This document shows, one piece after another, positions 6,817 to 27,967 of a stretch of 32,000 nucleotides of DNA. The stretch lies in the NCBI GenBank assembly GCA_964373795.1, contig CAYJVY010000005.1, forward strand, positions 37,813 through 69,812, written 5' to 3'. A program made the translations under genes and the position numbers. The notes beneath the pieces were generated by a model. That model saw only the letters and a program-made list of their open reading frames with translations, did not search any database and had not been told where the DNA came from. Numbering within the stretch: position 1 is the stretch's first letter; each line of letters starts with the position of its first letter. The DNA is from an uncultured archaeon. GTDB taxonomy: Archaea > Iainarchaeota > Iainarchaeia > Iainarchaeales > DATDZZ01.

Positions 6817-9800
6817 ATGCCTTTAAACGAAGAATCTTTCATGGCTCCAGCTCCGGAAAATAAGTTACTTGAATTATTGAAAGAAAAAAAAATACTGATT
6901 GCAGGAGTAATAGCTGTAATTGTTTTAATTGCAGTAGCTTATTTTTTTGTCTTGCCTTTGCTTTCACAAAAAAATTCAAATGTAATTCTTTCATTAAAAG
7001 ATCAAGAAGGAACAATTCTTCCTTCAACAACTGTTTCAATTAAAGTTAATGAAACTGTAAAAAATTTTTCAAGCGATTTAAAAGGATTAATTCCTTTAAC
7101 TGTTCCATTGAATGCAAAAATAAGTGTTTCAGCTGAATTAGATGGATTTGAAAAAGTTAATCAAAGTTTGACTGCAAGCAATGCAGAAATGAGTAAAACA
7201 ATTACTTTTTACAAGATTTCAAAGCTTTTAAGTAAAACAATTGTTTTACAAAACCTTGCAGGAGAAATGATTAACAAGGAAGGGAAAATAAATTTTTCTT
7301 GCTCTAATTCAAAAATCACTGCACCTCAACCAATTGACACAACAACAAGTGGAGCAATTAGGGTTACGCCTCCAGAAGGATGTGGGGATTTAATTGCAGA
7401 AGTAATAGTGAAAGGATTTGCTTCAAAGGATTCAGTGAAAATAGTTAATGCAACTGAAGTAATAGAGTTAAGCGCTGAAAAACCTAAAACAGGAACTATA
7501 AAAATTTCAGTTAAAAACAAGGCTTCAGAAGCATTAAATGGAATTACTGTAAAACTTTTTGCAGACAGCGGAGTAATTAATTCAGTTATTTCAAACACAG
7601 GAATAGCAGAATTTAATGAAGTAGAAGTAGGAGAATACTTTGTTTTAACTGAATCAAATCCAGATTATGTTAGCGGGCGAACAGAAAAATTTCAAGTAAA
7701 AGAAAACGAAGTAACTGAAAAAAACTTAGTGTTAGAAAAAGAAAGAACTGCAACACTAGAATTTGAAGTAACAGATAAAAACAGTCAAGCAAAAATTTCA
7801 AACGCAAAAGTCAGAATTGAATTGCAAGAAAAAAAGTTTTTGGAAGAAAAAAATTCTGACAAAGACGGAAAAGTTGTATTCACTTTATTTGATGTAGGAA
7901 AATTTAAAGTAACTGTATTACATGAAGAATTTTTATTTGATGAAAAAGAAATTCAAGTCAACAAAGGCGAGAATAAGGAAAAAATTTCTTTAGAAAAGCT
8001 TTCCCCTGAAAACAGTGGAAGAGTCTTAGTTACAGTTAAAGATGAAGACAATGAAGTAGTGGAAAACGCTAGAGTAAATATTCTTGATGCGAAAACAAAG
8101 TTTTTGTATCCCTTGCCTAAGGTGTATTTCACTAATGCAGAAGGAAAAGTAGAGTTTTCAGGAGTAAAAGAAGGAAAATATTTTGTAAGAGTTTCAAAAG
8201 CAAGAACTGAAGCTGACTCAAAAGCATTAAATGTAAGCAAAAGAGGAATAACAGAATATGAAATAAAAATGGTTATAGGAGAAGGAGTTGTAAGCATTAA
8301 AGCAGTTGATGCAGATAAAGCTCCAGTGCCAAATGCTTCAGCTGAATTCTTTGATGAAAAAGGAAAATCTTTAGGAAAAATTGATTTAGGCCCAGAAGCT
8401 GAAAGAGATTTCACTACTAAAGCGGATAAAAAAGTTTTCATTCGAGTTTCTGCTTCAGGATATAGTAGTTATGTAACTTTATTACATGAAGTAATTCAAA
8501 ACAGAAAAATAAATGTTTTAGCTCAGTTAGAGAAAACAATTCAAGGAACAAAACCTTCAATTGATTTTATAGGATTATTTAATTCAACTGATTCAGATAA
8601 AAGAATTGAAAAACTTGAAGCAGGAAATGCTTATATTGCAAAATTCCAGTTAAAGATTCCAAAAGGATTAAAGCTAAAAAATGCAGGAGTCTTTGTTAAA
8701 ACAGGCGAGGATTCATTAGTTCAAAACGATAATATTTTCATTAAAGCAATTAATGCTCCAAACTCTTCAAAGATTAGGGGAACAACTTTTAACGAGCCAA
8801 AAGGATATGCAATTGATTCACAAAACTTAACTTCAGAAAACGCTAAATGGGTTCAAATAATTTTGCAAGACCCTGAAGAAGGAATTTACAATATTGCAGT
8901 AGAATTAAGTGTAAAAATTAGAACTGTTCCAGGGGAAAGACTTTCAATTAATTACAGAGCATTTGCTGAAAACGATGCAAGAGAAACTTTAAGAGATCCT
9001 GAAGACAAAGAATTAGGTTTAGCGGAAAACTCTGCAAACAAAGAAGGCTTGTATGCTAATGCAACTATTTTAACTTATTTAGAAGGACAAAAAGAGGAAT
9101 GCACTGAAGAATTTTGTTACGGAGGAGTAACATTAGAGGAATCAGTTTCAAGGCTTACTTTAAGACAACAGCCATTTGAAGTATTTGTTTTTTCAGAAAA
9201 CAAATTATTTTTCTATTTAATAAATAATTCTGCAAAAGATTATTTAGATCCAGAAATCAGGTTTAAAAGTTTGGATAAAGCAATTAAAATTACTTCATAT
9301 AAAATAACTGATGCTTCTGCAAAACAAGTAAGCAAAAACAATCAAGAATTATTTGAATTCAATGAAAAACTTGGAAACTTTTCCAAAAACAGAGCAATTA
9401 AAGGAGAAATTGATTTACAAGCACTTGACCCCGAAGAAAAAGAATTAAAGCTTCAAATAGTGAACAAAGGAAACATTGTTTTTGAAAGAGAAATAAAATT
9501 TAATGCAAAAGTTTCAAACAAATTAACTATTAAATCATCTCCAACATTTTTGCCTGCATTCAAGAAAAATGTTTTAAACGTTGAATTAATTGATGAACAA
9601 GAATTAGGTTTAAGTAATACTAAAGTGAAATTCAAATTAATTTCTCCTGAAAGAATTGAAAGATTCATTGGAAGTGAGTTAACAGACGGATTAGGAAAAG
9701 CTGTATTCAAAATAGGAAATTTAAGTCCTCAATCAAAACTCAAAATCGAAGTAGAAAAAGCAGGATATCAATTCACTCCAGTACTAGTTCCAGTGGAATT

Positions 9801-12800
9801 AGATTTAGTTGACATTACTCCTTCAGAGGTAAGCTTGGCTTTAGAGTCTTTAGGAATGAGAAGAAAAGAAAAAACAGTTGAAGCATTAAACAAAATTGAT
9901 TTACCTTTACAAATAACTGATGCAAGACTAATAGGAGTGTTTAGGCAAGTAGATGTAACTGCAATGGAAGGACATTTGAAAAACAATGTAGTAGGAAAAA
10001 TTCTCTCTCCAGGAATTCCAGAAAAAATCAAGCCATTAATTGAAGTAAGCATTTCAGAAGGATTACAAGAAGACTTAGAATCAGCTTCCTATGTTGGAGA
10101 AATTTTGTTAGTGTTTTCAAATAAAACAATTGGAAAGCAATGGCTGAAAAGAATTCCATTCAAATTAGATTTAGGTTTAGGAGGAGAAATAAATAATGCT
10201 CCATGTATTTTCTTTGATACTTCAGAAAAAATTGAAAAAACTATTTTACAGTCAAGCTTTGAAGAAAAATTCACTATAGTTAATAGATGTAAAAACACTG
10301 CAGGAAACAGTAAACTGCAAAACTTGAAAGCAAAAATTAATTGGACTGGAAAAGACGGGCCAATAGGAATAGTTTCATTAGAAGTAACTGAAACTGCAAC
10401 TCAAAACAAGGTATTCAATCCATTAATTGAAGGAGAAGAAATAATTTTTGCAGCTCCGTTTAGAAATGAAAGTGGATTAGATAGTTCAAGTTATTCAGCT
10501 ATTTTAAGTTTCACTCCAAATGAAGACACAATAAATAAAAAAGCAGAATTTCAAGTAGAGTTTTTCGGAGAAGCTTTAACAGATCAAGGAAAAGAAATTA
10601 TTAGATCAAAGCCAACTCCTTTAACAGTAAAGTTATTGAATACTAATTTACAGAACTGCATTAAATTTGATACAGAAGAACAAAGAGGAAGAGTTTTATT
10701 AAAACCAGATGCAAATGAAGCAATCTTTAAAGTCGATTCAAGTGAATGTAAAAACGTGGAATTAGAGTTAAAGATTTGTGGAGGAGACTCAGATAAATGC
10801 AGAGGAAACGCAGTAGATGGAGGAATAAAAGTTGCTCCATGGAGTTATGGAAAAATTTTAGAAAAAGAAGTTTCATTCAAGGTTTCCAGGCCAACAGTAG
10901 AATTTGTTCCAGGAATTTATGGAATTGAAGTATTTGCAAGACCTGTGCAAAAATCTGGCGGCACTCCTCCATGGCAATTAATAGGAGTAATTGATGCAAT
11001 TCTTGATGTAAAAAAAGAAGATACAGATAAATACCTGAATTTAGAAAAATATGAATTCACTTTAGTTAATCCAACGAAAAAAGATGAAACAGCTTTATTC
11101 AATGAAAGATTAATGGAAAATGTTGATGTAACAGCTGATTACTGTGCATGGGATAAAGCAAAAAGATATGCAAACACTTTTGTAAAAATAGGAGAATGGT
11201 TTGATGAATTAAACGAATCTCCTACTGGATGGATAATGTTTATTGCAGAAATAGGAATCGCAGCAATAGTAATCGATGTAGTTCTAGATTTATTAGATCA
11301 AATATTTGGAACTGATTGGGCTGACGGGTTTTCAAAAATCTTAGGAAAACTAGAAATATTAGATGACTGTGAAGACAGAGATCACACTGGAACACTTCAA
11401 GACTATGTATTAAATTTAGTGGAAAATGGAGGAAGTACAAAACTTGTTTCATTAGAGGGAAGAGTTAAATCAAAACCAGTTATAGGTCCAGCAGGAGAAG
11501 CAAGAATTTCAAGGCCAAATGATTTTCCATTAGAAAAACTTGGAATTGAATTGGAAAATAAATCTCTTGAAGAAGGATTAATTCATTACGATATTTTGGA
11601 AATAAGTGGAACAGAGCATGTAAGAGGAGCAAGGCCTTACAGTGGCGGTGCACATTTAAAGTGCAGAGATGGATTTGGTCCATTCAATGTTAGAGGAGCT
11701 TGTGGAGGTTATTCTACTCGCACTAAAACAGAAAAATTTCATGTAAGAATTAACACTATTTCTCCTACTCCAAAATTAAGAGAAATTAGATTAAATGAAA
11801 TTTCTTGTATTGGAGATGGAAAACAAGGAAAAACAGGAAAAGATGCTCTTCCAAAAGTAAAGTTAAACTGGAGCTGGGATGAAAAAACTCAAAACGGAAT
11901 TTCAATTAATGAATGCGATGCAAACAATGAAAAAGCAGTTTACTGTGATGCAACTCAGTTTTCAATAATGTTTGCAAAAAGATTGAATGCAATAAGTGAT
12001 TTTTTAGAGAAAAACAAAAATAATTTAACTTGCCCTACAGACAGTACTTCAAAAACTGAGGAAAAAAATAATTCAAAAAAAGAGTCAAAACCAGTATTTT
12101 TAACTAAAGAAAAATTCGGGGCAACAGAATTTGAAACAATCTTTAAAGGAGTGGAAAACAATTTAATTGTAAGAGTAAAATATGAAAACGATTTAAAACA
12201 AAAAATTGATTTAAATGCAGTTATAACTTTAAACAAATTAATTATTGAAGCAGGAGAAGAAAGAGAAGTAAGCAAGTGTAAAAAAGATTTAAGCGTTAAC
12301 TCAAAAGACTTTGGAGTAATTGAATGCCAATTCAATGACTTAGCAAAAGATGAATACTTTGTATCTCTTTCAACTGAATCGCAAAACAAAGCTGATTTAG
12401 ATGATTGGAATCCAAAAGAAAACATAATTGTAATAAGCGAGCCAACTAGATTGCAGGGATGCTGGCTTCCAAAAACAACTGCTCCTTTAGGAGGCGAACC
12501 AACTTTAATAAAATTCTTGGAAAACTCTTCAAACATTACTTATACTGCAGACATTAATTCAAAAGAACAATTAACTAACATGCTTCACTTTAATGCATTG
12601 CTAATGAGGGATGGCTTTTCAAGTGATTTCAGACAAGATTTTGTAAATTATTATAAAAACCAGTCTTTCATGAATGCCTATCCATGGTTTTTCAATAATA
12701 CTGGTGGAAGAAATATTGAAAAATATTTTTCAGATCAAGATAGAATGAGGTTTTCAAGAAAATACACTCCTTCAAATAAATTAGACAAGCCAGGAATTTA

Positions 12801-13839
12801 TGAAATTCAAATAAGCATATTATTTGACAATGAATGGAGTTTATTTACTAATTCAGGTAATCCAAATGCAAGAATTGGGGTTACATTTAATCACTTACAG
12901 TTACCAAAACCTAATTCAGTGCTTTACTCAATGCCTTTAAATGGATTTGTTGGAAAAGAAGGCCAAACATTGAATAGACAAGGATATGGAACTCAATTTG
13001 ATGTAGTGCAAGATGAAGTAAAATTATCTGAAGGATTTGAAATAGTGAAAACCTTGAAAGATTCTTCTAGTAGTGCGTTAACAAAAGTTAAAGTGGAAAG
13101 GAAAAACGATTTACAGTCTTTAAACACTAATCCAAAGTTTAGAGGAAACTTGTTAACAATAAATAAAGTAAATGAAAACGTGAATGAATTGCTTTTCTCT
13201 CCAAATTATGCTACTCCTGTTTTAATGAAGTTTAATCAAGACAAAACTGAAAAGCCTTTCACAATGCATTACGGAGTAACAGAAGGAACTCAATTAGTTA
13301 ACACTGGAGCAAATTTAACTTACTGGAATGCAGCAGTTAACTGCTTTGACTTTGGAGGAGAACCTTTAGTGAAAAGATTCAAAGTTGCTCCTGACAGAGC
13401 TTCAAAACCAGAAGATGGATTGCCAAACCATGAAAACATTTATGCATTGCAATGGTTGAAAGCAGTTAAAGGAGGAAATATTTTCTTGCAAACAATTTAC
13501 TTTGTTCCAACAATAGGAAATTATAATTTAAAAGCAGTTTCACCTCTTTCAAATATTTTATTTTACTCTCCAGAAAAACCTACTGGCTCGCAAACAATTG
13601 AGTTAAGCGGAATTAGTGGAATGAATTTAAACAGTAAAGGCAGAACAGAAGTAGTTGATTCCTTGCAAGACATTTTTTCATTAGTTGAATCAGGAGATGT
13701 ATGCGTTGGAAACAATGGTGAAAGCTTTTACTGGAATTCTCAAAAGCTTTACACTTTTAAAAACCCTCAAGCAAACATTATAGATATTAATTCAATTGCA
13801 TTCGAAAAAGAACAAAGAAAAGAATGCATTCTAAATTAA
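6817..13839 (+). CDS. Giant surface protein (2340 aa), paralog of the upstream ORF. It has an N-terminal signal-anchor helix, CarboxypepD_reg/PEGA-like repeats, conserved Cys pairs, and an internal hydrophobic segment.
   Basis: The ORF is a 7.0-kb open frame starting 22 nt after the previous stop. The N-terminus 'KKILIAGVIAVIVLIAVAYFFVLPLL' is a single hydrophobic anchor. At least four beta-sandwich repeats are visible (GTIKISVKNK..., ATLEFEVTDK..., GRVLVTVKDED..., GVVSIKAVDAD...). Conserved islands are shared with the first giant ORF (see that entry). Confidence 0.92.
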   Translation: MPLNEESFMAPAPENKLLELLKEKKILIAGVIAVIVLIAVAYFFVLPLLSQKNSNVILSLKDQEGTILPSTTVSIKVNETVKNFSSDLKGLIPLTVPLNAKISVSAELDGFEKVNQSLTASNAEMSKTITFYKISKLLSKTIVLQNLAGEMINKEGKINFSCSNSKITAPQPIDTTTSGAIRVTPPEGCGDLIAEVIVKGFASKDSVKIVNATEVIELSAEKPKTGTIKISVKNKASEALNGITVKLFADSGVINSVISNTGIAEFNEVEVGEYFVLTESNPDYVSGRTEKFQVKENEVTEKNLVLEKERTATLEFEVTDKNSQAKISNAKVRIELQEKKFLEEKNSDKDGKVVFTLFDVGKFKVTVLHEEFLFDEKEIQVNKGENKEKISLEKLSPENSGRVLVTVKDEDNEVVENARVNILDAKTKFLYPLPKVYFTNAEGKVEFSGVKEGKYFVRVSKARTEADSKALNVSKRGITEYEIKMVIGEGVVSIKAVDADKAPVPNASAEFFDEKGKSLGKIDLGPEAERDFTTKADKKVFIRVSASGYSSYVTLLHEVIQNRKINVLAQLEKTIQGTKPSIDFIGLFNSTDSDKRIEKLEAGNAYIAKFQLKIPKGLKLKNAGVFVKTGEDSLVQNDNIFIKAINAPNSSKIRGTTFNEPKGYAIDSQNLTSENAKWVQIILQDPEEGIYNIAVELSVKIRTVPGERLSINYRAFAENDARETLRDPEDKELGLAENSANKEGLYANATILTYLEGQKEECTEEFCYGGVTLEESVSRLTLRQQPFEVFVFSENKLFFYLINNSAKDYLDPEIRFKSLDKAIKITSYKITDASAKQVSKNNQELFEFNEKLGNFSKNRAIKGEIDLQALDPEEKELKLQIVNKGNIVFEREIKFNAKVSNKLTIKSSPTFLPAFKKNVLNVELIDEQELGLSNTKVKFKLISPERIERFIGSELTDGLGKAVFKIGNLSPQSKLKIEVEKAGYQFTPVLVPVELDLVDITPSEVSLALESLGMRRKEKTVEALNKIDLPLQITDARLIGVFRQVDVTAMEGHLKNNVVGKILSPGIPEKIKPLIEVSISEGLQEDLESASYVGEILLVFSNKTIGKQWLKRIPFKLDLGLGGEINNAPCIFFDTSEKIEKTILQSSFEEKFTIVNRCKNTAGNSKLQNLKAKINWTGKDGPIGIVSLEVTETATQNKVFNPLIEGEEIIFAAPFRNESGLDSSSYSAILSFTPNEDTINKKAEFQVEFFGEALTDQGKEIIRSKPTPLTVKLLNTNLQNCIKFDTEEQRGRVLLKPDANEAIFKVDSSECKNVELELKICGGDSDKCRGNAVDGGIKVAPWSYGKILEKEVSFKVSRPTVEFVPGIYGIEVFARPVQKSGGTPPWQLIGVIDAILDVKKEDTDKYLNLEKYEFTLVNPTKKDETALFNERLMENVDVTADYCAWDKAKRYANTFVKIGEWFDELNESPTGWIMFIAEIGIAAIVIDVVLDLLDQIFGTDWADGFSKILGKLEILDDCEDRDHTGTLQDYVLNLVENGGSTKLVSLEGRVKSKPVIGPAGEARISRPNDFPLEKLGIELENKSLEEGLIHYDILEISGTEHVRGARPYSGGAHLKCRDGFGPFNVRGACGGYSTRTKTEKFHVRINTISPTPKLREIRLNEISCIGDGKQGKTGKDALPKVKLNWSWDEKTQNGISINECDANNEKAVYCDATQFSIMFAKRLNAISDFLEKNKNNLTCPTDSTSKTEEKNNSKKESKPVFLTKEKFGATEFETIFKGVENNLIVRVKYENDLKQKIDLNAVITLNKLIIEAGEEREVSKCKKDLSVNSKDFGVIECQFNDLAKDEYFVSLSTESQNKADLDDWNPKENIIVISEPTRLQGCWLPKTTAPLGGEPTLIKFLENSSNITYTADINSKEQLTNMLHFNALLMRDGFSSDFRQDFVNYYKNQSFMNAYPWFFNNTGGRNIEKYFSDQDRMRFSRKYTPSNKLDKPGIYEIQISILFDNEWSLFTNSGNPNARIGVTFNHLQLPKPNSVLYSMPLNGFVGKEGQTLNRQGYGTQFDVVQDEVKLSEGFEIVKTLKDSSSSALTKVKVERKNDLQSLNTNPKFRGNLLTINKVNENVNELLFSPNYATPVLMKFNQDKTEKPFTMHYGVTEGTQLVNTGANLTYWNAAVNCFDFGGEPLVKRFKVAPDRASKPEDGLPNHENIYALQWLKAVKGGNIFLQTIYFVPTIGNYNLKAVSPLSNILFYSPEKPTGSQTIELSGISGMNLNSKGRTEVVDSLQDIFSLVESGDVCVGNNGESFYWNSQKLYTFKNPQANIIDINSIAFEKEQRKECILN

Positions 13840-13846
13840 ACTTTAC

Positions 13847-14242
13847 TCAAAACTTTATTCTTTTTATTTCAGAAACCCTATCAAAATCAGAGTCATCTGA
13901 AGCAATTTCTTTAATTTCACGTTCCTTCATTATTGCTACATGAAATGCATCTCTGGGTTTTAAGTTATATTTTTCAATAAAATCTAAAGCTGAAAAAGGA
14001 ATCATTGAATTTACTTCAATAATATCTGTATTAGGCAAAGAATAAATGTCTTGAATTGTTTCACGCAATAGAGAGTGTTTCTTGTTTTTAATGAGAACCC
14101 AAATTACTTCATCTAATACTAAAGCAGATGTTACTGCTTTTCTTCCTTGTATAATAGATTCTTGAAGTTTTCTTGCATTTCCACCTTTTTCAGTTAAATC
14201 AAAGTTTGCTAAAATAAAAAAATTTGCGTCTAAATAAATCAT
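13847..14242 (-). CDS. vapC: PIN-domain ribonuclease toxin (VapC family)
   Basis: The 131-aa product carries the PIN acidic signature: D5 in 'MIYLDAN', E in 'VLDEV', D in 'KPRDAFH', and 'SDDSDFD' near the C-terminus. It overlaps the upstream antitoxin gene by 4 nt, as is typical for toxin-antitoxin coupling. Confidence 0.85.
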   Translation of the reverse strand: MIYLDANFFILANFDLTEKGGNARKLQESIIQGRKAVTSALVLDEVIWVLIKNKKHSLLRETIQDIYSLPNTDIIEVNSMIPFSALDFIEKYNLKPRDAFHVAIMKEREIKEIASDDSDFDRVSEIKRIKF

Positions 14243-14490
14243 CTAAATTCCTCTTCATAAAGTTTGTCGCCATAAATCCATCCAAGTTTCTTAAGGTTTC
14301 CGCCATGCTTTTTTGCTCGTTCAGCCCATTTTTTAACTAAATCATCAGATACCAAAGGATGAATTTCAAGAATGTGTTCTTTAACTTCCATTAAAACATT
14401 TCCAGATTCTTTTATTCCAAGACTTTCTCTAATAATTTTTGGAATAACTACTTGCCCTTTTGGGCCAACTCTAGTTTTAAATCTAACCAT
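14239..14490 (-). CDS. vapB: AbrB/SpoVT-type antitoxin (VapB family)
   Basis: The 83-aa product has the N-terminal swapped-hairpin motif 'VGPKGQVVIPKIIRESLGIKESGNVLMEV'. It overlaps the PIN gene by 4 nt. A TATA-like 'tatatatagtgg' (minus-strand reading) lies about 20-30 nt upstream at 14511-14521. Two palindromic aacgtt hexamers at 14533-14538 and 14546-14551 could be an operator. Confidence 0.85.
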   Translation of the reverse strand: MVRFKTRVGPKGQVVIPKIIRESLGIKESGNVLMEVKEHILEIHPLVSDDLVKKWAERAKKHGGNLKKLGWIYGDKLYEEEFR

Positions 14491-14590
14491 AAGTATTACT
14501 TTGTAAAACCACTATATATACTTTTTGTGTTTAACGTTCTTAAAAAACGTTTAGAGGAAGATTTAAATAAAATAAGTGGAATAAATTAGT

Positions 14591-14956
14591 ATGCTTCAAT
14601 TAATGCCTTTATTATTTATTGGAGAATTTTTTTCAGATTTCACTTTAGTGTTAAAAATATTTGTTTTTCTTACAATTGTAAGCTTTGTTAAAAACCATGT
14701 AGGAAATAATGTTATTGCAATTGTAATAACTATTTTGTTTAGCTGGTATGCATTGTTTGTAGCATTTGCTTTTTTTGGAACAATTTACTTGCTTTACACG
14801 TTATTGTTGCTAGGAGTAAGCGGAATTGTAATTGATTTCTTTTTTGTTTCACAGTCAGCTGGACATCAAAACTTGCAAGATAATTCCCCTGTTTCAAGTG
14901 GATATGATATTGTTAAAAGACAAGTAGCATCTCGACAAGCAATGATGAGAAGGTAA
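14591..14956 (+). CDS. Small integral membrane protein (121 aa, about 3 predicted TM helices, basic C-terminal tail)
   Basis: Hydrophobic stretches include FTLVLKIFVFLTIVSFV, VIAIVITILFSWYALFVAFAFFGTIYLLYTLLLLGVSGIVIDFFFV. The TATA-like 'atttaaataaaa' lies at 14561-14572, about 20-30 nt upstream of the ATG. This is the first of five consecutive small membrane ORFs. Confidence 0.7.
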   Translation: MLQLMPLLFIGEFFSDFTLVLKIFVFLTIVSFVKNHVGNNVIAIVITILFSWYALFVAFAFFGTIYLLYTLLLLGVSGIVIDFFFVSQSAGHQNLQDNSPVSSGYDIVKRQVASRQAMMRR

Positions 14957-14963
14957 AAAAATT

Positions 14964-15308
14964 ATGAATGAAAAAGGTTTTGTTCCTCCAATGATTTTAT
15001 TAATTGTAGGCGCATTTTTAATAGTTTTAATTATTCCACCAATTTTGTTAACCTTGTTTCCCTTTGTTAGACTGATTTTCCAAATTGCAATGATTTTCAT
15101 GATTTACATTATGGTTAAAGGATATATTGGTGATGGCCCTTTAACTCTAATTATTTCAGGAATACTAATCTATTTTTTAGTTTTCAAATACACTTTGCTT
15201 ACTTCAACTTTGTGGGTTTTTCAAACACTTTTAATGTATTCATTTTTTTCAATGGTTATATGGGGAGTTGGAACTCAAACACCTCGTTTTTTTCAAAAAA
15301 GGGCTTGA
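14964..15308 (+). CDS. Small integral membrane protein (114 aa, about 3-4 TM helices)
   Basis: It starts 7 nt after the previous stop, which suggests an operon. The sequence is almost entirely hydrophobic (MILLIVGAFLIVLIIPPILLTLFPF..., LTLIISGILIYFLVF..., LLMYSFFSMVIWGVG). Confidence 0.7.
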   Translation: MNEKGFVPPMILLIVGAFLIVLIIPPILLTLFPFVRLIFQIAMIFMIYIMVKGYIGDGPLTLIISGILIYFLVFKYTLLTSTLWVFQTLLMYSFFSMVIWGVGTQTPRFFQKRA

Positions 15309-15400
15309 AAACAATTCAATTAATGCCTTTAACCATTTAACATAAGGATTATAAATGAAAAAAATAATGAATATATTATTGAATTAAATTAGATGATTAA

Positions 15401-15661
15401 ATGGCTTCAGCTGCATACATTGCTTCGTTTTTTGACAACATATACATTGCATTACTTTTATTTATTTTAATTTGGATTTTCAGTTGGGCTAAAGGAGCTT
15501 TAGGCAGCCCAAAACTAGCTATTTTATTTGCATTAATAATTGTGTACTTAACTGTATACCAATTCCCTGAATTAGTGTGGATTGGAGTGGGATTGTTTTT
15601 GTTTGCAACATTTGGAAAAGACTTGCTTGCAAATGTTAACTTTCATCAAGGAAGAAGATAA
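15401..15661 (+). CDS. Small integral membrane protein (86 aa, about 3 TM helices)
   Basis: Hydrophobic segments are IYIALLLFILIWIFSW, LAILFALIIVYLTVY, VWIGVGLFLFATF. A TATA-like 'attataaatg' lies upstream. The overlapping frame 15582..15926 is the less likely reading. Confidence 0.65.
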   Translation: MASAAYIASFFDNIYIALLLFILIWIFSWAKGALGSPKLAILFALIIVYLTVYQFPELVWIGVGLFLFATFGKDLLANVNFHQGRR

Positions 15662-15663
15662 TT

Positions 15664-15975
15664 ATGGATGCATTTACTTTTTTAATGGCAATTGTTTTAA
15701 TTATTTTAGGAGTATCCTTTGGAGAAAAATGGATTGTGTTTGGAATAATTTTATTACTAATTTTAACTCAAAGATCAATTATTTTAAGTGTGTTATTAAT
15801 TTTTGCTGGAGCATTGATTTACATTATTCAAGCATTTGGTTTAAGTTATTTATGGCCAGTAGTAATTTTTGGATTAATTATTTTAGGTTTAATGTTTGGA
15901 ATTCAACCTCAAGAACAAGCTCCTGAAATGTGGAGTCCAGAAGGAGGAGGCGGAGGATTACTTGGCGGGATTTAA
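15664..15975 (+). CDS. Small integral membrane protein (103 aa, about 3 TM helices, Gly-rich C-terminus)
   Basis: It starts 2 nt after the previous stop. Hydrophobic segments are FTFLMAIVLIILGVSF, WIVFGIILLLILT, IILSVLLIFAGALIYIIQAF, WPVVIFGLIILGLMFG, and the tail is PEGGGGGLLGGI. Confidence 0.65.
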   Translation: MDAFTFLMAIVLIILGVSFGEKWIVFGIILLLILTQRSIILSVLLIFAGALIYIIQAFGLSYLWPVVIFGLIILGLMFGIQPQEQAPEMWSPEGGGGGLLGGI

Positions 15976-16305
15976 TTGAATTTAGTAGTACTTCTATTAC
16001 TTTTTTTAGCATTTCTTTACTTGATTTCAGTCAATGAAGTTTTTCTGGCAATTGTTCTTGCAATATTGGGAATTGTATTAATTCTTTTCCCAAAAGGAGT
16101 TCAAGAAGAAATAAAACTAGTAAGTGAAGCAAAAGGAAGTTATCCAGACAAAGAAATCTTTTTAGAAGCCGCGCATAACTTAAACAAGCATTTAATGAAT
16201 ATTGGAACTCCAAAACAAAGATATGGAGAAAAAAGCAATTTAACTGAATTAATGCCTGACAACATTAACTATTTTTTCAAGCAATTAAGAAAATTATTCA
16301 AGTAA
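15976..16305 (+). CDS. Small membrane-anchored protein (109 aa, about 2 N-terminal TM helices plus a soluble basic C-terminal domain), with a TTG start abutting the previous stop
   Basis: The TTG at 15976 immediately follows the TAA at 15973-15975. There is no in-frame ATG until late in the ORF. The N-terminus is LVVLLLLFLAFLYLISV / FLAIVLAILGIVLILF. The start-codon assignment is uncertain. Confidence 0.55.
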   Translation: MNLVVLLLLFLAFLYLISVNEVFLAIVLAILGIVLILFPKGVQEEIKLVSEAKGSYPDKEIFLEAAHNLNKHLMNIGTPKQRYGEKSNLTELMPDNINYFFKQLRKLFK

Positions 16306-16340
16306 GCTTTTCTTCCGACGTTTCGCTCGTCGAACGCGAC
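16305..16340 (+). repeat. Short GC-rich repeat copy A: terminal 'agcttttctt' plus a hairpin, homologous to the left end of copy D
   Basis: 'agcttttcttccgacgtttcgctcgtcgaacgcgac' compares with 27705-27740 'agcttttctttcgacgtttcgcgcgtcgaacgcaac', differing at only 3 positions. The hairpin has arms 16314-16320 and 16328-16334. The copy sits exactly between the stops of two convergent genes. Confidence 0.8.
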
Positions 16341-16342
16341 AT

Positions 16343-16858
16343 TTACAACTTGTTTAAAATTTGTCTTTCAGTTTCAAGCAAGTCTTTTAAAAGTTTTTCA
16401 ATGGATTGATTTGTTCCCTTCATTTCAGACAACTTTGATTCTAGCTCTAATATTCTTGACTCGAATTGCTTTAAATCAGTTGAACTACTTTTAAGCAACA
16501 TGCTTCGCAATTCATTTAATTGCTCTGATAAATGGTCAAGCATTACTTGAGTAGCTGCATGCTTTGAATCATCTACATCTGAAAACCTTGTAGGCCCTAA
16601 AGATTCTGGTTCTTCAGATTCTGTTTCTGCTTCTTCTGATTCAGTTTCAGGTTCTGATTCTAGTTCAGGTTCAGGAGTTGCCTTTATTGCAGGAGATTTA
16701 ACTCTAGTTTTTCCTCCGCCTTTAATTTCGCTTAAAATAGTTCTAGCATCTTTTTCAGTTAACCCAGAATCGAGTAATTCTTTAACAATTTCTTCTTCAC
16801 TTAAACCTGCATCCAATAAAATTTTTGCTTGCTTTAAAAAAATTTCTTTTCCAGGCAT
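16343..16858 (-). CDS. Hypothetical protein (171 aa): small helical N-domain, acidic Glu/Ser/Pro low-complexity linker, C-terminal coiled coil
   Basis: It is an ATG-started ORF. The N-terminus reads 'AKILLDAGLSEEEIVKELLDSGLTEKDARTILSEI', the linker 'TPEPELESEPETESEEAETESEEPES', and the C-terminus is heptad-like. I recognise no family. Confidence 0.65.
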   Translation of the reverse strand: MPGKEIFLKQAKILLDAGLSEEEIVKELLDSGLTEKDARTILSEIKGGGKTRVKSPAIKATPEPELESEPETESEEAETESEEPESLGPTRFSDVDDSKHAATQVMLDHLSEQLNELRSMLLKSSSTDLKQFESRILELESKLSEMKGTNQSIEKLLKDLLETERQILNKL

Positions 16859-16953
16859 TTAACTCACTCAAAGCATAATTTTATGCCGGTATTTGACAAC
16901 GGCGAAAGCTTAATTATTTATATTATTAACACTATATATAGTTTACTTTTGAT

Positions 16954-17070
16954 TCAGCCTCGCGGTCACGCGCCTTGAACGCGCAAGGTCTCGTGCGTCG
17001 ACACGAGGGCCTGCATAGGCCTTCAGCTTCGCCGGCTGATCGCTTCAGCTTCGCCTGATGAACGGTGGTG
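16954..17070 (+). repeat. GC-rich mosaic repeat copy B, a chain of at least 4 short hairpins
   Basis: Hairpins are cgcg/gtca/cgcg (16961-16972), ccttg/aacgcg/caagg (16973-16988), ctcgtg/cgtcga/cacgag (16990-17007) and ggcct/gcat/aggcc (17008-17021). These are followed by a direct duplication of 'cttcagcttcgcc' at 17021 and 17043. Copy B shares 'gtctcgtgcgtcga' and the core 'cagcttcgccggctg' with copy D, and 'cgccttga.cgcg' with copy C. Confidence 0.8.
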
Positions 17071-17078
17071 GAAAAAAA

Positions 17079-18587
17079 ATGCATTTATTTAATTTAAGAA
17101 ACGGTCCTTGGGAAATTCTTTTCGAAGGAACTCTTCATAGCCTTGAAACAGGAATTTACACTAATTCAAGAAAAGATTTTTTAATAATTATTTTAGACAA
17201 AGAAGGGCATGCAATTAAAGGCGCGTTAACCCAGTTTTACACTGTTTTTTTAGTTGAAGGAGAAATAGATTCATTAATTCAGGAAAAGGAAAGCATTGCG
17301 TTAATTAGAAGTGAAGGATTTGAAAAACACAAATTTCTTTTAATTCCAAGTTCATCTGAATACATTGCTTGGAAGGAAAAAGAATTCATTGAAAAAACAA
17401 GTCAAATGTTTAAAGAATTAGAAGAATTAAAAGAAAAAACAAAGGAAACAGCAAAAAAATTAAAATTAAATGCTGTAAGCTTGAATGAATGCAAAACAGA
17501 AGTAAAAGAAGGATTCTTAAATCAACCATTGCTTGCTCCGTTAATTTCTTCTCAATTAAAAGAAAAAGAAACATCAAATGAAATTAAAATAGAGAAATCT
17601 TTAAGTGGAGAAGTAATTCTTGGCTTGAATAGAGAAAATATTTTAATTTCAGAACCTTTTTCATTATTTAAAAAAACAATTGCTTCAGGAAATGAGGACT
17701 TGAATAGAATTCATTTACTTCATGTATTAATTGAAGGACTATTGCTTTCAAACATTGACTGCATTGCATTTGAATTTGAAGAAAAATTTAAAGGATTAGA
17801 TACTCCTACAAGCAAGTTAAATGAATTAAAAGCAAGCAAAATTGAAATAGAGCCAATAGGTTTTCCAGTGAAAAAATTTCAAGCAAAACAAGAAATAAAA
17901 GTTGACTTGAATTTATTAAAAGCTGAATCTTTAATGGATTTATTTGGAGTAACAGATAAAGAATTAATTGAATTTCTTGAAGCAAGGTTAAGAGAAAAAG
18001 AACACACAGATTTACAAGAATTCATTCAAACACTGAAAGAAAGCTTGCCTTCAACTGAAGTAAACCAGTATCAAATAAACAAAGTTATTAGAATATTCAA
18101 GTTAATTGACTCTAAATATCCTAGAATGCTTGGAGGCGCAAACCCAATTCAAGAAATCACTAAAAGCTGGTTAAAAGAAATAGGCAAAATATCAATAATT
18201 GATTTACAAGAAGTAAAAGATGAAAAAGAAAAACTTTTATTTATAACAAACATAGTTAAAGGAATTCTTGAATCGCAAAAAGAGATTACAATTAAAAGCA
18301 AGTTAAAGTTAATGCTTTTTATTCCAAATTCATTTGAATTAATTGGAAAAGAAAAAAACAATGAAATGAGTAAAGAATTAATTGAATTATTAATGCAAGC
18401 AGAAAAACATGGAATTGGATTTGTATTAGAAACAAATCAAAAAACTGATTTAAAAGACGAAGTAGTTGAACAAATGGAATCAGAATTAACCCTTGTTAGC
18501 GGAATTGATTTAGGAGTAAGCCTTCCAGGAAAAACTCATTACAGAATAAAAGTAAGGCCAACTCTTTCAAAACAAGTAGACGAATAA
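17079..18587 (+). CDS. Hypothetical protein (about 502 aa). It may have a HerA/FtsK-type (DUF87-like) P-loop NTPase fold with degenerate Walker A/B motifs.
   Basis: I prefer the ATG at 17079 (MHLFNLRNG...) over the track start at 17058, because 17058-17078 lies inside the GC-rich repeat. The layout resembles HerA/DUF87. 'EVILGLNRENILISEPFSLFKKTIASGNEDLNRIHLLHVLIEGLL' sits where GxxGSGKS would be. 'GKISIIDLQEVKDEKEKLLF' and 'KLMLFIPNSFELI' sit where hhhhDEAH would be. 'AEKHGIGFVLETNQKTDLKDEVVEQMESELTL' sits where EGRKyGvgl..sQrPs.l...vlsq would be. This is pattern recognition only. Coding status is solid; the family call is tentative. Confidence 0.6.
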   Translation: MHLFNLRNGPWEILFEGTLHSLETGIYTNSRKDFLIIILDKEGHAIKGALTQFYTVFLVEGEIDSLIQEKESIALIRSEGFEKHKFLLIPSSSEYIAWKEKEFIEKTSQMFKELEELKEKTKETAKKLKLNAVSLNECKTEVKEGFLNQPLLAPLISSQLKEKETSNEIKIEKSLSGEVILGLNRENILISEPFSLFKKTIASGNEDLNRIHLLHVLIEGLLLSNIDCIAFEFEEKFKGLDTPTSKLNELKASKIEIEPIGFPVKKFQAKQEIKVDLNLLKAESLMDLFGVTDKELIEFLEARLREKEHTDLQEFIQTLKESLPSTEVNQYQINKVIRIFKLIDSKYPRMLGGANPIQEITKSWLKEIGKISIIDLQEVKDEKEKLLFITNIVKGILESQKEITIKSKLKLMLFIPNSFELIGKEKNNEMSKELIELLMQAEKHGIGFVLETNQKTDLKDEVVEQMESELTLVSGIDLGVSLPGKTHYRIKVRPTLSKQVDE

Positions 18588-18598
18588 TGCCAAATGAA

Positions 18599-19039
18599 TT
18601 ATTTTTTCTTTTTTACAGAAGAAGTTTTTCCGCTTCCCTCTTTAAGCATTTCATCAATGATTTCTTTCACATCTTCTCTTGTAACAAACTTGTTTGGCCC
18701 AATAAAGTCAACCAGTTTTTTGACTTCAACAAATTCATCTTTTTTAGTATAATTACTCCAAATCAATGCCAGTTTTTCATTAACCTCATTTAAAGAATTA
18801 TTAATTCTATCTAATTGAAGCTTTAAATCAGCTGGAACATCTTGCCTTCCACCTGAAAGCTGTCTATTCAAGTCATCCCTTAACTCAATTAATTTCTTGT
18901 TAAAGGCAAGGCTTTTAGTTAAAAGCAATTTATCGTTATAAGAAAAATGCCTAAGCCTTTGAGTAATTAAATCAATTGAAGTATTCAAATGCTCAATGTT
19001 TTGCCTTATTTGATCTAAAACATTTGGTTGAGTAGGCAT
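18599..19039 (-). CDS. Hypothetical coiled-coil protein (146 aa) with a Lys-rich C-terminal tail
   Basis: I prefer the ATG at 19039 (MPTQPNVLDQIRQNIEHL...). The track start at 19123 adds 28 codons (MPTWALSFAGCSAKES...) that merely translate the GC-rich repeat; the same peptide string appears from the repeat at 27778-27819. Confidence 0.65.
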   Translation of the reverse strand: MPTQPNVLDQIRQNIEHLNTSIDLITQRLRHFSYNDKLLLTKSLAFNKKLIELRDDLNRQLSGGRQDVPADLKLQLDRINNSLNEVNEKLALIWSNYTKKDEFVEVKKLVDFIGPNKFVTREDVKEIIDEMLKEGSGKTSSVKKKK

Positions 19040-19080
19040 AAAATCATAACTATAAAGGCAATTGAAACTTAAAAAACTTT

Positions 19081-19276: not shown

Positions 19277-19289
19277 TTTATAAAAATAT
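19276..19289 (+). promoter_or_regulatory. Putative TATA box/promoter of polB
   Basis: 'tttataaaaatatt' lies about 21-34 nt upstream of the ATG at 19310, immediately after the GC-rich element. The spacing suggests a leaderless or very short-leader mRNA. Confidence 0.4.
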
Positions 19290-19309: not shown

Positions 19310-21739
19310 ATGAAAGAAAAAGGATTTTTATTAGATGTTCAGTATTATTCGAATTCTGAAAATAAGTCAGTAATTCAGTTATTTTTAAAAACAGTTAAAG
19401 GAATTCAAATATTTGAAGACAAATCTTTTTCACCTTATTTTTATGTAATCCTGGAAAAAGCGGGAGAAAAGCATTTAAAAGAATTAAAAAACGCGCAACT
19501 AGGAAGTGAAAAAATTAAGACATTAAATGCTTTTGTTGAAACAAAAAAAAGTGAAAAAAATGTTGTAAAACTTGAATTCAATAGCGTGAAGGATTTAACT
19601 ATTGCAAGAGAAGAAATAAAGAAATTGGAATTTGTTTTAGAGAAAAGAGAATACGATATTCCTTTCACTAAAAGATATTTAATTGATAAAGACTTAAGTC
19701 CACTGGAATTAATTGAAGTGGAATTCAAAGAAGAAAATGGAAAAAAAATAGTTGAAGAAATAAAAAAGCTTCCAGAAAAATCAATTGAATTAAATTTAGG
19801 AGCCTTTGATTTAGAAACTCATTCCCCTGGAAGGTTTTCAGATGCAACTAAAGACCCAATTCTAATGATTGCATACGTAGATGAAAAAGAAAAACAAATT
19901 CTTACATGGAAACACAAAGAATTAAGCAAAATAAGCTTTGTAAAAGTGTTTGAAACAGAAAAAGAAATGCTTGAATTTTTTGTAAAAAAATTAAAAGAAA
20001 AACAATTAGATGGAATAATAACTTATAATGGAGACTCGTTTGATTTTCCATACTTAAAAGAGCGAACAAGAATTTACAAAATTGAGTTTGACATAGGAAT
20101 TGATGGAAGCGAGCCAATCATTAAAAGAAAAGGAATGGAAAACGCAGTGCAAATTCATGGCACTCAACACATTGACGCATATCAAATGATTTTATTAATG
20201 AATAGATTTGGAACAATTAATTTAATTAAATTTGATTTGGAAACAGTTTATGAAAAGTTATTCGGCGAACCAAAGGAAAAACTTAAAGCAGAAGAAATTA
20301 ACTGGATTTGGAAAACAGGAAAAGAATTACAAAGATTAGTGAATTATAACTTGGAAGATGCTGTTGCAACATACAAAATTACTTTAAGGTATTTATCTTT
20401 ATTCATTGAATTAGGAAAACTAGTAAAACAACCATTATTTGATGTAGTGAGAACAGCTGCTTCAAACATGGTTGAAAACTTGTTAATAATTAAAGCATTT
20501 AAAGCAAAAGAATTAATTCCAAACAAACCAGAAGAAGGATTAGTAAAGCAAAGAATGCTTCAAACATTTAAAGGAGGCTATGTAAAAGAACCTCTTCCAG
20601 GATTGCATGAAAACATTGCAATAATGGATTTTCGAAGCCTGTATCCATCAATAATGATTTCACACAATATCTCTTCAGATACATTGGATTGTGAACATGA
20701 AAAATGCAAGACAGGAAAAAACTTGGCTCCAACAAAGCATTGGTTTTGTGAAAAAGAAAAAGGATTTTTAACAAGCATTTTAGAAGAAATTTTAACTAGA
20801 AGAATTGAATTAAAAAAACAATTCAAGGAAGAAAAAAATTCTGATTTAAAAAAAGTTTTAGAAGCAAAACAACACGCATTAAAAATAGTGTTAAACTCTT
20901 TTTACGGAACATTAGGATATGCAAGGTTTAGATGGTATTCAAGGGAAGCAGCAAGAGGAATTGCGGCATGGGCAAGACACTATGTAAAAGAAGTAATTCA
21001 TAAAGCAGAACAAGCAAATTTAACTCCAATTTACGGAGACAGCGATTCAGCATTTGTTTTAATTCCAAAAGAAAAATCACAGGAAAACGTGAAAGAATTT
21101 GTGAAAAAAATTAATGCAGAATTACCTGAAGCAATGGAGTTAGAGTTAGAAGGATTTTATAAAAGAGGAATTTTTGTAACAAAAAAAACAGGGGAAGGAG
21201 CTGCAAAGAAAAAATATGCATTAATTGATTTTAATGGAAATCTAAAAATAGTTGGATTTGAATATGTTAGAAGAGATTGGAGTCCAATAGCAAAAAAAAC
21301 TCAGAAAAAAACAATTGAATTAATTTTAGATAAAGGACATCCAGAAGAAGCAGTGCAATACGTGAAACAAGTAATAAAAGATTTAAAGAACGGCAAAGTA
21401 CCAAAAAAAGAATTAATTATTTTAAATCAAATAAAAAAACCAATTAAATCCTATGAATCAATTGGCCCACACGTTGCAGCAGCTAAAAAAGCAATTCAAA
21501 GAGGAAAAGAATTAGGCACAGGATCAATAGTTGGATATATTGTAACAAAGGGATCTGGAAAACAGGTTTCAGATAAAGCAGAATTAGAAGAATTCGTTGA
21601 AGAAGGAAACTATGACTCAGATTACTATATTCATAATCAAGTAATTCCTGCAATAATAAAAATAATTGGAGAACTAGGATACTCAGAACAAGACTTAATT
21701 CAAGGCGGCAAACAATCAAATTTAAGTGCATTCATGTAA
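19310..21739 (+). CDS. polB: Family B DNA polymerase (archaeal PolB)
   Basis: Exonuclease motifs are 'GAFDLET' (ExoI), 'YNGDSFDFPYL' (ExoII) and 'YNLEDA' (ExoIII). Polymerase motifs are 'DFRSLYPSI' (A), 'KIVLNSFYGTLGY' (B), 'IYGDSDSAF' (C, with Ser in place of the usual Thr) and 'KKKYA'. At 809 aa it has no intein. Confidence 0.95.
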   Translation: MKEKGFLLDVQYYSNSENKSVIQLFLKTVKGIQIFEDKSFSPYFYVILEKAGEKHLKELKNAQLGSEKIKTLNAFVETKKSEKNVVKLEFNSVKDLTIAREEIKKLEFVLEKREYDIPFTKRYLIDKDLSPLELIEVEFKEENGKKIVEEIKKLPEKSIELNLGAFDLETHSPGRFSDATKDPILMIAYVDEKEKQILTWKHKELSKISFVKVFETEKEMLEFFVKKLKEKQLDGIITYNGDSFDFPYLKERTRIYKIEFDIGIDGSEPIIKRKGMENAVQIHGTQHIDAYQMILLMNRFGTINLIKFDLETVYEKLFGEPKEKLKAEEINWIWKTGKELQRLVNYNLEDAVATYKITLRYLSLFIELGKLVKQPLFDVVRTAASNMVENLLIIKAFKAKELIPNKPEEGLVKQRMLQTFKGGYVKEPLPGLHENIAIMDFRSLYPSIMISHNISSDTLDCEHEKCKTGKNLAPTKHWFCEKEKGFLTSILEEILTRRIELKKQFKEEKNSDLKKVLEAKQHALKIVLNSFYGTLGYARFRWYSREAARGIAAWARHYVKEVIHKAEQANLTPIYGDSDSAFVLIPKEKSQENVKEFVKKINAELPEAMELELEGFYKRGIFVTKKTGEGAAKKKYALIDFNGNLKIVGFEYVRRDWSPIAKKTQKKTIELILDKGHPEEAVQYVKQVIKDLKNGKVPKKELIILNQIKKPIKSYESIGPHVAAAKKAIQRGKELGTGSIVGYIVTKGSGKQVSDKAELEEFVEEGNYDSDYYIHNQVIPAIIKIIGELGYSEQDLIQGGKQSNLSAFM

Positions 21740-21812: not shown

Positions 21813-22733
21813 ATGGACAAAAAAATGAGAGAAAACCATCTTAAAGCAGGCAAAATATTGCACGAAGTTAGACAGAAAGCAATTAAAAGCATTAAACCAG
21901 GGCAAAAATTGCTTGAAATAGCTGAAAGCATTGAAAAAGACATTATTGATGCAACCGCAGCAACAGCAGATGGAGGAATTGGTTTTCCAGTGAACTTGTC
22001 AATGAATAATGTGGCTGCTCATTTTACTCCTGGAATTGCAGATGAAAGCGTTTTGGAAGAAAACTGTATTTTAAAACTTGATATTGGAGTGCAGGTAAAT
22101 GGCAGGCTAGCTGATTCAGCTGTAACACTTGATTTTTCTGGCGAATACGGAAAACTTTTAGAAGCTTCTTATACTGCTTTACAGAATGCTATAAGTGTTT
22201 TAAAAATTGGCTTGCCTATTTCAAAAATTGGAGCAGAAATCGAGAACACTATTAAAAAATATGGATTTAAACCTGTGAGAAATTTGTCGGGACATGGATT
22301 AGGAGAATATATTGGGCATGCTCCTCCAACTATTCCAAACATTGATAACAGGGATTCAAAAAAAATAGAGGAAGGAATGGCTTTTGCTATAGAGCCTTTT
22401 ACTTCAACTGGAGAAGGATTTGTAAGAGAAGGAAATTTAACTGAAATATTTGCATTAGATCATCCCAAACCTGTTAGAAATATTTATGCAAGACAAATTT
22501 TGAAAAACGTGGAAGAAAAATTTAAAACACTTGCTTTTGCTGAAAGACATGTAGCAAAAGATTTAAGTGAATTTAATAGAAAGGTTGCAATGCGAGAATT
22601 GCTTTCAAACAAATGCTTGCATGCATACCCTATTTTAAAAGAAAGCGAAGGAGTAATGATTGCTCAATTTGAAACAGATTTTCTTGTAGACGGAGAAGAA
22701 ATAATTCAAGCAGTTCCACTGCCAAAATTTTAA
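21813..22733 (+). CDS. map: Methionine aminopeptidase, type 2 (archaeal/eukaryotic class)
   Basis: The 306-aa product has metal-ligand motifs in order: 'NVAAHFTP', 'LDIGVQVNGRLADSA' (the two Asp), 'NLSGHGLG' (His), 'FAIEPF' (Glu) and 'IAQFETDFLV' (Glu). Size and inserted helical subdomain are typical of archaeal MetAP. Confidence 0.9.
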   Translation: MDKKMRENHLKAGKILHEVRQKAIKSIKPGQKLLEIAESIEKDIIDATAATADGGIGFPVNLSMNNVAAHFTPGIADESVLEENCILKLDIGVQVNGRLADSAVTLDFSGEYGKLLEASYTALQNAISVLKIGLPISKIGAEIENTIKKYGFKPVRNLSGHGLGEYIGHAPPTIPNIDNRDSKKIEEGMAFAIEPFTSTGEGFVREGNLTEIFALDHPKPVRNIYARQILKNVEEKFKTLAFAERHVAKDLSEFNRKVAMRELLSNKCLHAYPILKESEGVMIAQFETDFLVDGEEIIQAVPLPKF

Positions 22734-25860: not shown

Positions 25861-25879
25861 AGTGTATTTGGTGGTTTTT

Positions 25880-27862: not shown

Positions 27863-27967
27863 CAAAAGAAAAAAGTAAAAAGTACAAGTTACAAAAATAA
27901 ATGAAATGCAAAGCATTTCATATGCTCAGCTTTATGCTGTGCACGTACTCAAGGGACGTGACCTTGT

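Follow-up and report, generated by a model that had tools for sequence, protein, structure and literature searches.

The window analysed here is a stretch of 32,000 nucleotides (nt) from an uncultured archaeon of the Iainarchaeota (GenBank assembly GCA_964373795.1, contig CAYJVY010000005.1, positions 37,813 to 69,812). Past two giant genes (G1 and G2) it carries a block of genes for five small membrane proteins (M1 to M5), a coiled-coil protein (CC1), a HerA-like protein (H) and a second coiled-coil protein (CC2), followed by a family B DNA polymerase (PolB) and a methionine aminopeptidase (MetAP); all positions are listed in Table 1. We tentatively read this block as one undescribed, lineage-specific membrane-associated assembly in which H would act as a catalytically dead scaffold, a possible reading whose chances we put a little short of even. 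H represents a previously undescribed, inactivated branch within a known superfamily, and no relatives of the M1 to M5, CC1 and CC2 families can be detected. No prior description of the cluster was found in the literature. Iainarchaeota and their fellow DPANN archaea have hardly been brought into culture, if at all, and annotation is missing for the majority of their lineage-specific genes.

Conservation of the gene order

Gene contexts of related proteins were collected by exact-protein look-ups, a scan of GTDB genomes and a metagenome scan, the last of which was run with an alignment of six H sequences and yielded four largely redundant loci. In 11 distinct loci of the Iainarchaeota (Diapherotrites) type (the window, L001, L011, L013, L016, L020, L025, L026, L027, L030 and L031), the genes follow one order: giant(s), M1, M2, M3, M4, M5, CC1 on the minus strand, H, CC2 on the minus strand and PolB, usually with MetAP next. 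With profile hidden Markov models that draw on three to six loci, all of M1 to M5 are recovered in this order wherever a related locus extends far enough upstream. An earlier, sequence-only reading of the window had proposed that the cluster could be an envelope-spanning apparatus, and had tied this proposal to synteny in relatives and to conservation of the small open reading frames (ORFs) as proteins; both are found in these loci. All named relatives of the studied proteins belong to metagenome-assembled genomes (MAGs) labelled 'Candidatus Diapherotrites / Iainarchaeum' or unclassified archaeon, apart from one distant relative labelled Micrarchaeota. The complete genome of archaeon GW2011_AR10 (L013) is among them.

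The order persists over a long evolutionary distance. Locus L030 (49% GC) retains the whole block with a 301-amino acid (aa) gene inserted between M2 and M3, and L031, with 53% GC against 30% in the window and an H that is 23% identical, keeps the succession of M1 to M4, M5-like genes, CC1, H, CC2 and PolB. That around ten genes keep their arrangement down to 23% identity and across a 23-point shift in GC content marks the block as a core element of the lineage's cell biology. Beyond MetAP the synteny breaks off, as the next three genes of the window (encoding a CxxCxxCC protein and ORFs of 287 and 291 aa) have no homolog in any locus, and collinearity of whole genomes therefore does not account for the block. 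Genes of at least 100 aa are inserted between the giant and M1 (window, L011), M2 and M3 (L030), H and CC2 (L011, L026), CC2 and PolB (L016), and PolB and MetAP (L001, L016). None is recognisable at the successive junctions from M3 through M4, M5 and CC1 to H in the 11 loci. The end of synteny past MetAP and these insert-free junctions argue that the block is specifically maintained.

Upstream of M1, homologs of the giants are present in L001, L013, L016, L020, L026, L027 and L030, and L011 and L025 show the C-terminal part of a G2 homolog at this position. The gene upstream of M1 in L031 shows no similarity, which brings the loci with a recognisable giant to 10 out of 11, the window included. 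The cluster had earlier been described as lying directly downstream of the giants. The neighbourhood holds, but 'directly' is not strictly correct in the window, because a VapBC-type toxin-antitoxin pair (PIN and AbrB/MazE; 13847-14490, minus strand) is inserted between G2 and M1. This pair does not occur at the giant-M1 junction of the other related loci.

A HerA-like protein without a nucleotide site

H matches the Pfam family PF01935 (DUF87/HerA central domain) with an E-value of 2e-6 and 28.4 bits, compared to a gathering cutoff of 23.2, over the C-terminal two thirds of that domain only. An AlphaFold2 model was made from a six-sequence alignment (predicted local distance difference test score, pLDDT, 74.8; predicted template modelling score, pTM, 0.62). 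When this model is compared with the PDB by Foldseek, the top 50 matches are all HerA, with Sulfolobus HerA (4d2i) as the best one (E 3e-13, TM-score 0.47-0.51), and the matches also include 9x1m, 7wrw, Sir2-HerA, DUF4297-HerA, TdpAB and HerA-NurA. Likewise, the best matches in a viral structure library (BFVD) are HerA-like. A profile of 130 H-family sequences aligns with 4d2i over the ATPase-like core (E 1.5e-6, profile positions 186-467) and additionally gives weak matches to EccC. Judged by model and profile, the fold of H is that of HerA. The sequence-only reading had compared this protein of around 500 aa with ATPases of the HerA/VirB4/FtsK type; the P-loop NTPase fold of HerA is indeed recovered, whereas the likeness to VirB4 and the ATPase motifs are not.

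The nucleotide site itself is lost family-wide, as far as the aligned sequences tell. At Walker A, the H-family consensus 'viGGsekeR' falls on 'aaTGSGKS' of HerA and H of the window reads TIASGNEDLNR; at Walker B, 'alivlPEae' falls on 'iiaviEEAH' and the window reads LMLFIPNSF. The P-loop GxxxxGK[ST] is replaced in the family by [VI][VI]xGGxExxR, and GK[ST] is kept in three of the 131 members and gone in the other 128. The Walker B pattern hhh[DE][DE] is kept in seven members. Its first acidic position is most often proline (n = 68), followed by glutamate (n = 30) and aspartate (n = 9), and in the window the acidic pair is replaced by Pro-Asn. On these grounds, H does not qualify as a conventional ATP-driven motor.

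An exhaustive profile search of 1.84 billion representative proteins returned 270 clusters of H relatives at 50% identity with E <= 0.001, and 170 at E <= 1e-30; most of the 150 listed relatives are 470-520 aa long. With 270 clusters only, the family is small and sharply separated from mainstream HerA. A further homolog search with a divergent H alignment returned two proteins. The start of H is probably the ATG at 17079, in agreement with the 502 aa of its database copy. The Micrarchaeota-labelled homologs of H (L028 1664-3721, P0113; L029, P0277) carry a probably disordered C-terminal extension of around 200-280 aa, with many Pro, Lys and Gln residues, that is missing from Iainarchaeota H.

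H shares the fold, the DUF87 domain and the length of around 500 aa with Sulfolobus HerA (4d2i). It differs from the HerA of HerA-NurA systems by the missing P-loop and by the replacement of the Walker B acidic pair with Pro-x in about half of the family. Moreover, its neighbours are membrane and coiled-coil proteins, its family is small and lineage-restricted, and neither NurA nor Mre11 or Rad50 was found in the window or the related loci. In Sir2-HerA/Nezha, DUF4297-HerA, TdpAB and HerA-NurA, a HerA-fold protein is likewise encoded beside lineage-specific partner genes. Those systems, however, combine an active ATPase with soluble partners (nucleases, NADases), whereas the site of H is dead and the proteins that might partner it are of the coiled-coil or small membrane type.

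The membrane and coiled-coil proteins

The sequence-only reading had recognised five small membrane ORFs of 86-121 aa with two to four transmembrane (TM) helices and gaps of 7, 2 and 0 nt, followed by a reverse-strand coiled-coil gene, a HerA-like gene of around 500 aa and a second coiled-coil gene. All of these are confirmed where they had been placed and correspond to M1 to M5, CC1, H and CC2. TM helices were counted by Kyte-Doolittle hydropathy scans, the fourth helix of M4 being read from the sequence by eye. With intergenic gaps of 7, 92, 2 and 0 nt, the five genes form two packed units on the plus strand, M1-M2 and M3-M4-M5, within which stop and start codons are coupled.

Identity to the window protein, from BLAST or alignment, is around 29-54% for M1, 30-65% for M2, 35-65% for M3 and 30-47% for M4, and M5 is the least conserved with 17-31% where it can be aligned. 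In the closer loci, M2 (38-65%) and M3 (45-63%) exceed H (31-40%). The M3 family counts at least 373 proteins at 90% clustering, around 80-90 aa in length, and none of them has a Pfam domain. Across the 11 loci, invariant residues are D16 and D82 in M1, G5, G56, T61 and G101 in M2, and W29, S36, L39, A40, F71 and G72 in M3.

Several of the membrane proteins are related to each other. M1 and M2 align over 71 columns with an hhalign probability of 95.7% (E 1e-8) and are, on the evidence of their sequences, diverged paralogs of one 3-TM unit. M3 matches both of them weakly (probability 38-55%) over the same 'TM-K-G-x-h-G-TM' hairpin and is probably a further diverged paralog. According to the positive-inside rule, M1, M2, M3 and M5 would have their basic C-terminal tails in the cytoplasm, and the K-G-x-h-G loops would face the same side. 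Outside the block, Pfam, NCBIfam, PADLOC and PHROGs hold no relatives of M1 to M5 beyond chance-level matches, and the profiles of M1, M2 and M3 have zero matches among PDB sequences at E <= 10. The AlphaFold2 model of M3 consists of three helices (pLDDT 84.8) and has no structural neighbour in the PDB. The copy number of M5 differs between lineages. In L031 it is expanded to four tandem paralogs of 100-153 aa (L031 2522-4913), each a 2-TM hairpin with a tail; two of these tails contain a YPEK motif, of which the other two retain no more than a YP/FP-like remnant.

The N-terminal module of CC1 spans around 45 aa with two G-h-[ST/D]-[ED]-x-[ED]-h repeats, and in L031 this module is duplicated in a CC1 of 297 aa. 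Searches with the module returned only de novo designed helical repeats and weak Topo V/RecX-type helix motifs. For CC2, only coiled-coil or de novo designed repeat matches were found, none of them informative. When all eight proteins were scanned with Pfam, NCBIfam, PADLOC and PHROGs, DUF87 in H was the one useful match, and the remainder was noise from coiled coils. The start of CC2 is most likely the ATG at 19042 (MPTQPN...): the extra 27 codons of the longest call fall in a GC-rich repeat, and CC2 homologs begin with MPHER....

A proposed assembly and alternative interpretations

In the assembly proposed here, M1 to M5 would be subunits of one hetero-oligomeric integral membrane complex, made up largely of duplicated 3-TM units. 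M1, M2 and probably M3 would present their K-G-x-h-G loop, located between the first two shared helices, on the cytoplasmic side. M4 would be an additional small polytopic subunit, and M5 would contribute a 2-TM hairpin whose basic tail probably lies in the cytoplasm. By analogy with HerA, H would form a ring that lacks a nucleotide P-loop and serves as a passive scaffold rather than as a motor, a role suggested because HerA hexamers dock NurA, Sir2 or DUF4297 partners, and CC1 and CC2 would be adaptors. A role in the envelope is suggested by the neighbouring giant proteins. That the parts associate physically, that H forms a ring and acts as a scaffold, and that the whole serves the envelope are all features that we infer. 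RecA-like proteins with impaired catalysis and a structural or regulatory role under a membrane complex do exist, such as ArlH/FlaH of the archaellum and the degenerate EccC ATPase domains of the type VII secretion system. H has no homology to these beyond the superfamily, and no active partner ATPase was identified in the block. Taken as a whole, the block matches no known kind of system.

A number of observations weigh against a single system, the case for which is drawn from comparative genomics alone. CC1 and M5 are convergent, as are H and CC2; the pairs CC1/H and CC2/PolB are divergent. This strand layout places H outside the operon of the membrane genes, and with the opposite-strand CC1 in between, H is not co-transcribed with M1 to M5. 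In the Micrarchaeota-labelled locus L028, where H is around 20% identical, the order H, CC2 on the minus strand and PolB is kept with no M gene or CC1 within 1.6 kb upstream, and a DUF2283 protein and a 199-aa soluble protein are encoded there instead. As H, CC2 and PolB stay together even here, CC2 and PolB are the most persistent neighbours of H. In an Iainarchaeum MAG (L010), a transposase-like ORF of 345 aa (508-1545, minus strand) lies directly upstream of H, and the clade of L004 and L014 has no CC1 within 230-390 nt upstream of H. In this clade, four independent contigs (L004, L005, L006 and L014) all end 90-390 nt upstream of H, which suggests a repeat or mobile element at this site. 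The model of H, as mentioned, was built on six aligned sequences and has a pLDDT of 74.8. Finally, the block includes the unrelated housekeeping genes of PolB and MetAP, so that adjacency alone is no proof of joint function.

An alternative is two adjacent, unrelated modules, namely an envelope complex of M1 to M5 (perhaps with the giants) and a non-catalytic replication or repair ring of H and CC2 (perhaps with CC1) that would derive from a DNA translocase and work with PolB. We regard this split as the main alternative, albeit as less probable than the single assembly. It agrees with H being a separate transcription unit and with the adjacency of H, CC2 and PolB, the most persistent one, seen in every locus long enough, L028 without upstream M genes and CC1 included. 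Furthermore, the HerA homologs of H are DNA translocases, as illustrated by the PDB matches to HerA-NurA and TdpAB. Yet, the ATPase motifs required for DNA translocation are precisely what H has lost, and scans of the window proteins with Pfam and NCBIfam revealed no nuclease or other DNA-processing partner nearby. CC2 and PolB are divergently oriented, and in L011, L016 and L026 other genes separate H from CC2 or CC2 from PolB. In addition, the order of the M genes, CC1 and H persists to the same depth (23% identity) as that of H and PolB, and MetAP is equally conserved beside PolB without a functional link.

Conversely, the single assembly can be extended to a phylum-specific apparatus that comprises the giants, M1 to M5, CC1, H and CC2. 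A nucleotide-free, HerA-derived pseudo-ATPase ring would then connect the giant envelope proteins outside with the chromosome or replisome inside, either as an envelope-to-nucleoid tether or as a conduit for DNA or nucleotides, with the small-subunit membrane complex anchoring the ring via the coiled-coil adaptors. We consider this extension improbable. The sequence-only reading, too, had suggested that the cluster and the giant surface proteins could form one apparatus, for attachment or transport between symbiont and host; a link to the giants is supported by their adjacency in 10 out of 11 loci.

For M1 to M5 by themselves, an ion-conducting or ion-coupled module, similar to the Mrp small subunits or to stators, is conceivable at a comparably low probability, and H, CC1 and CC2 would then be regulatory or unrelated. 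A set of five small polytopic subunits that includes paralogs resembles the accessory subunits of multi-subunit cation antiporters, and the invariant, buried D16 and D82 of M1 and the conserved basic residues (Lys/Arg) at the helix ends of M2 and M3 across the 11 loci would fit such a function. Against it, no match to MnhB/C/E/F/G, NuoK, SMR or any other Pfam or NCBIfam membrane family is obtained at E <= 1, and neither the PDB sequence searches with the M1, M2 and M3 profiles nor the structural search with M3 gave a match. Membership of Mrp/Mnh itself was rejected, given the missing MnhB/C/E/F/G and NuoK profile matches and the absence of a large antiporter-like (MrpA/D) subunit from the window.

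The sequence-only reading had likened the cluster to the crenarchaeal Ced/Ted DNA-import systems and to minimal conjugation-like translocons. The Ced/Ted systems derive from type IV secretion systems. The Ced system consists of CedA with 6-7 TM helices, the 2-TM pilins CedA1/A2 and CedB, a VirB4/HerA-like ATPase that powers import; its Ted counterparts include TedA (CedA-like, a VirB6-like channel) and TedC (CedA1-like, a VirB2-like two-helix pilin) (PMC9905601). If the block were an ATP-driven translocon for DNA or protein of this kind or of a minimal type IV secretion system, H would be a VirB4/CedB-type motor and M1 to M5 would supply the channel and pilin-like parts. The resemblance is superficial: in both cases small 2-TM hairpin proteins (here M5 and its paralogs) occur in an archaeon near a protein of the HerA/FtsK superfamily. 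However, the loss of Walker A and, for the most part, of Walker B in the H family largely refutes this idea, which we regard as very improbable. The fold matches of H point to HerA proper rather than to VirB4, and the sole conjugation-type match is weak (rank 6 in BFVD). A CedA/VirB6-like channel is also missing, since the block and the related loci encode no protein with 6-7 TM helices and the largest has four. The block contains no relaxase, coupling protein or second ATPase. Pfam and NCBIfam scans yielded no match to VirB, Trb or Ced components, in line with the earlier remark that no sequence similarity to Ced or conjugation components could be seen. Compared to the CedA1/TedC pilins, M5 and its paralogs add a basic tail of 60-100 aa to the 2-TM hairpin and show no sequence match. 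The Ced/Ted systems belong to Crenarchaeota and the block to DPANN archaea, again without sequence similarity. HerA-like proteins in DPANN genomes should have their P-loop checked before they are called motors of Ced- or conjugation-type DNA import.

The last alternative, that the small hydrophobic ORFs stay open merely by chance in DNA whose plus strand is T-rich (AT skew of around -0.1 to -0.15 over 14001-17000, with a bias toward Phe, Leu and Ile), has a negligible probability and is refuted by homologs with invariant residues in loci from 30% to 53% GC, by the size of the M3 family and by the ORF lengths, for which the local base composition (stop-codon probability per codon p = 0.086) gives chances of 4e-4 for 86 open codons and 2e-5 for 121.

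The block is one of few fixed arrangements of around ten lineage-specific genes in DPANN archaea, and H is a clean example of a HerA-family protein turned pseudo-enzyme. If the parts work together, they would form a new type of membrane-associated assembly and a target for cryo-electron tomography and proteomics in DPANN enrichments.

Genomic setting and other features

The genes of the block and the neighbouring features are given in Table 1.

Table 1. Positions in the window of the genes of the conserved block, its neighbours and the intergenic repeat upstream of H.
Feature	Position	Strand	Description
G1	6..6794	+	at least 2262 aa, 5' end beyond the window; Pfam CarboxypepD_reg, SpaA and PPC domains
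G2	6817..13839	+	2340 aa; N-terminal TM anchor, Ig-like/prealbumin-like domains, central hydrophobic segment
M1	14591-14956	+	121 aa; 3 TM helices, basic C-terminal tail
M2	14964-15308	+	114 aa; 4 TM helices; start 7 nt past the M1 stop
M3	15401-15661	+	86 aa; 3 TM helices; most conserved of M1 to M5; motifs WAKGxLGSxKLA and FGK
M4	15664-15975	+	103 aa; 3 scored TM segments, probably 4 TM helices; Gly-rich C-terminal tail; start 2 nt past the M3 stop
M5	15976-16305	+	109 aa; TTG start directly past the M4 stop; N-terminal 2-TM hairpin and basic soluble tail of around 70 aa
CC1	16343-16858	-	171 aa; N-terminal helical module, acidic linker, C-terminal coiled coil
GC-rich repeat element	16941..17080	.	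64-66% GC; CC1-H intergenic region
H	17079-18587 (longest call from ATG 17058)	+	502 aa (509 aa from 17058); HerA fold (predicted), degenerate Walker A and B
CC2	18599-19042 (longest call to 19123)	-	147 aa (174 aa longest); coiled coil and conserved C-terminal motif ELKYVIDSINPLEFVT
PolB	19310..21739	+	family B DNA polymerase; conserved neighbour of H-CC2 wherever a locus extends far enough
MetAP	21813..22733	+	type-2 methionine aminopeptidase; in most loci the syntenic block ends here

G1 and G2, encoded in tandem, are paralogs that share 32% identity over 2300 aa. The giants carry domains of the CarboxypepD_reg/SpaA/Big type, and a central hydrophobic segment or hairpin is located at residues ~1382-1422 of the G1 fragment and ~1468-1497 of G2. 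In both proteins it is followed by a Cys-containing C-terminal region of around 850 aa. G2 has no match among PDB sequences.

Besides PolB and MetAP, the housekeeping genes of the window comprise histidyl-tRNA synthetase (HisRS), ribose-5-phosphate isomerase and three tRNAs. Together with the labels of the relatives, they mark the window as chromosomal DNA from a DPANN archaeon of the Iainarchaeota type. With regard to a mobile or viral origin of H, tblastn against phages and plasmids and a scan of IMG/VR retrieved no relatives. In PADLOC and PHROGs scans M1 to M5 had no matches, and those of CC1, H and CC2 were weak and at chance level. A defence system or mobile element was rejected for lack of support from these searches and in view of the flanking PolB, MetAP, HisRS and tRNA genes.

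Intergenic repeats of 64-72% GC stand out in this genome of 30% GC, at 16941-17080, 19061-19280 and 27705-27870, with a short relative at 16305-16340. The segments 19085-19190 and 27760-27835 are inverted copies that are 91-95% complementary, and 16989-17042 is a 70% relative. The repeats bracket the pair of H and CC2, and one follows tRNA-His. They have neither an Rfam match nor a significant fold z-score, and they may resemble miniature inverted-repeat transposable elements or repetitive extragenic palindromes (MITE/REP-like). The element at 16941-17080 was rejected as a non-coding RNA, given that it has no Rfam match and fold z-scores of -0.3 and -1.7, and was classed as a dispersed repeat. 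It probably lies outside the system, although it occupies the likely leader or promoter of H.

An 88-nt tRNA at 30066-30153 (plus strand) scores 54.5 bits in Rfam, is absent from the ARAGORN output and probably contains an intron. Finally, a second toxin gene, of the PIN_2 type and with a small upstream ORF, is located at 25862-26523 (plus strand).

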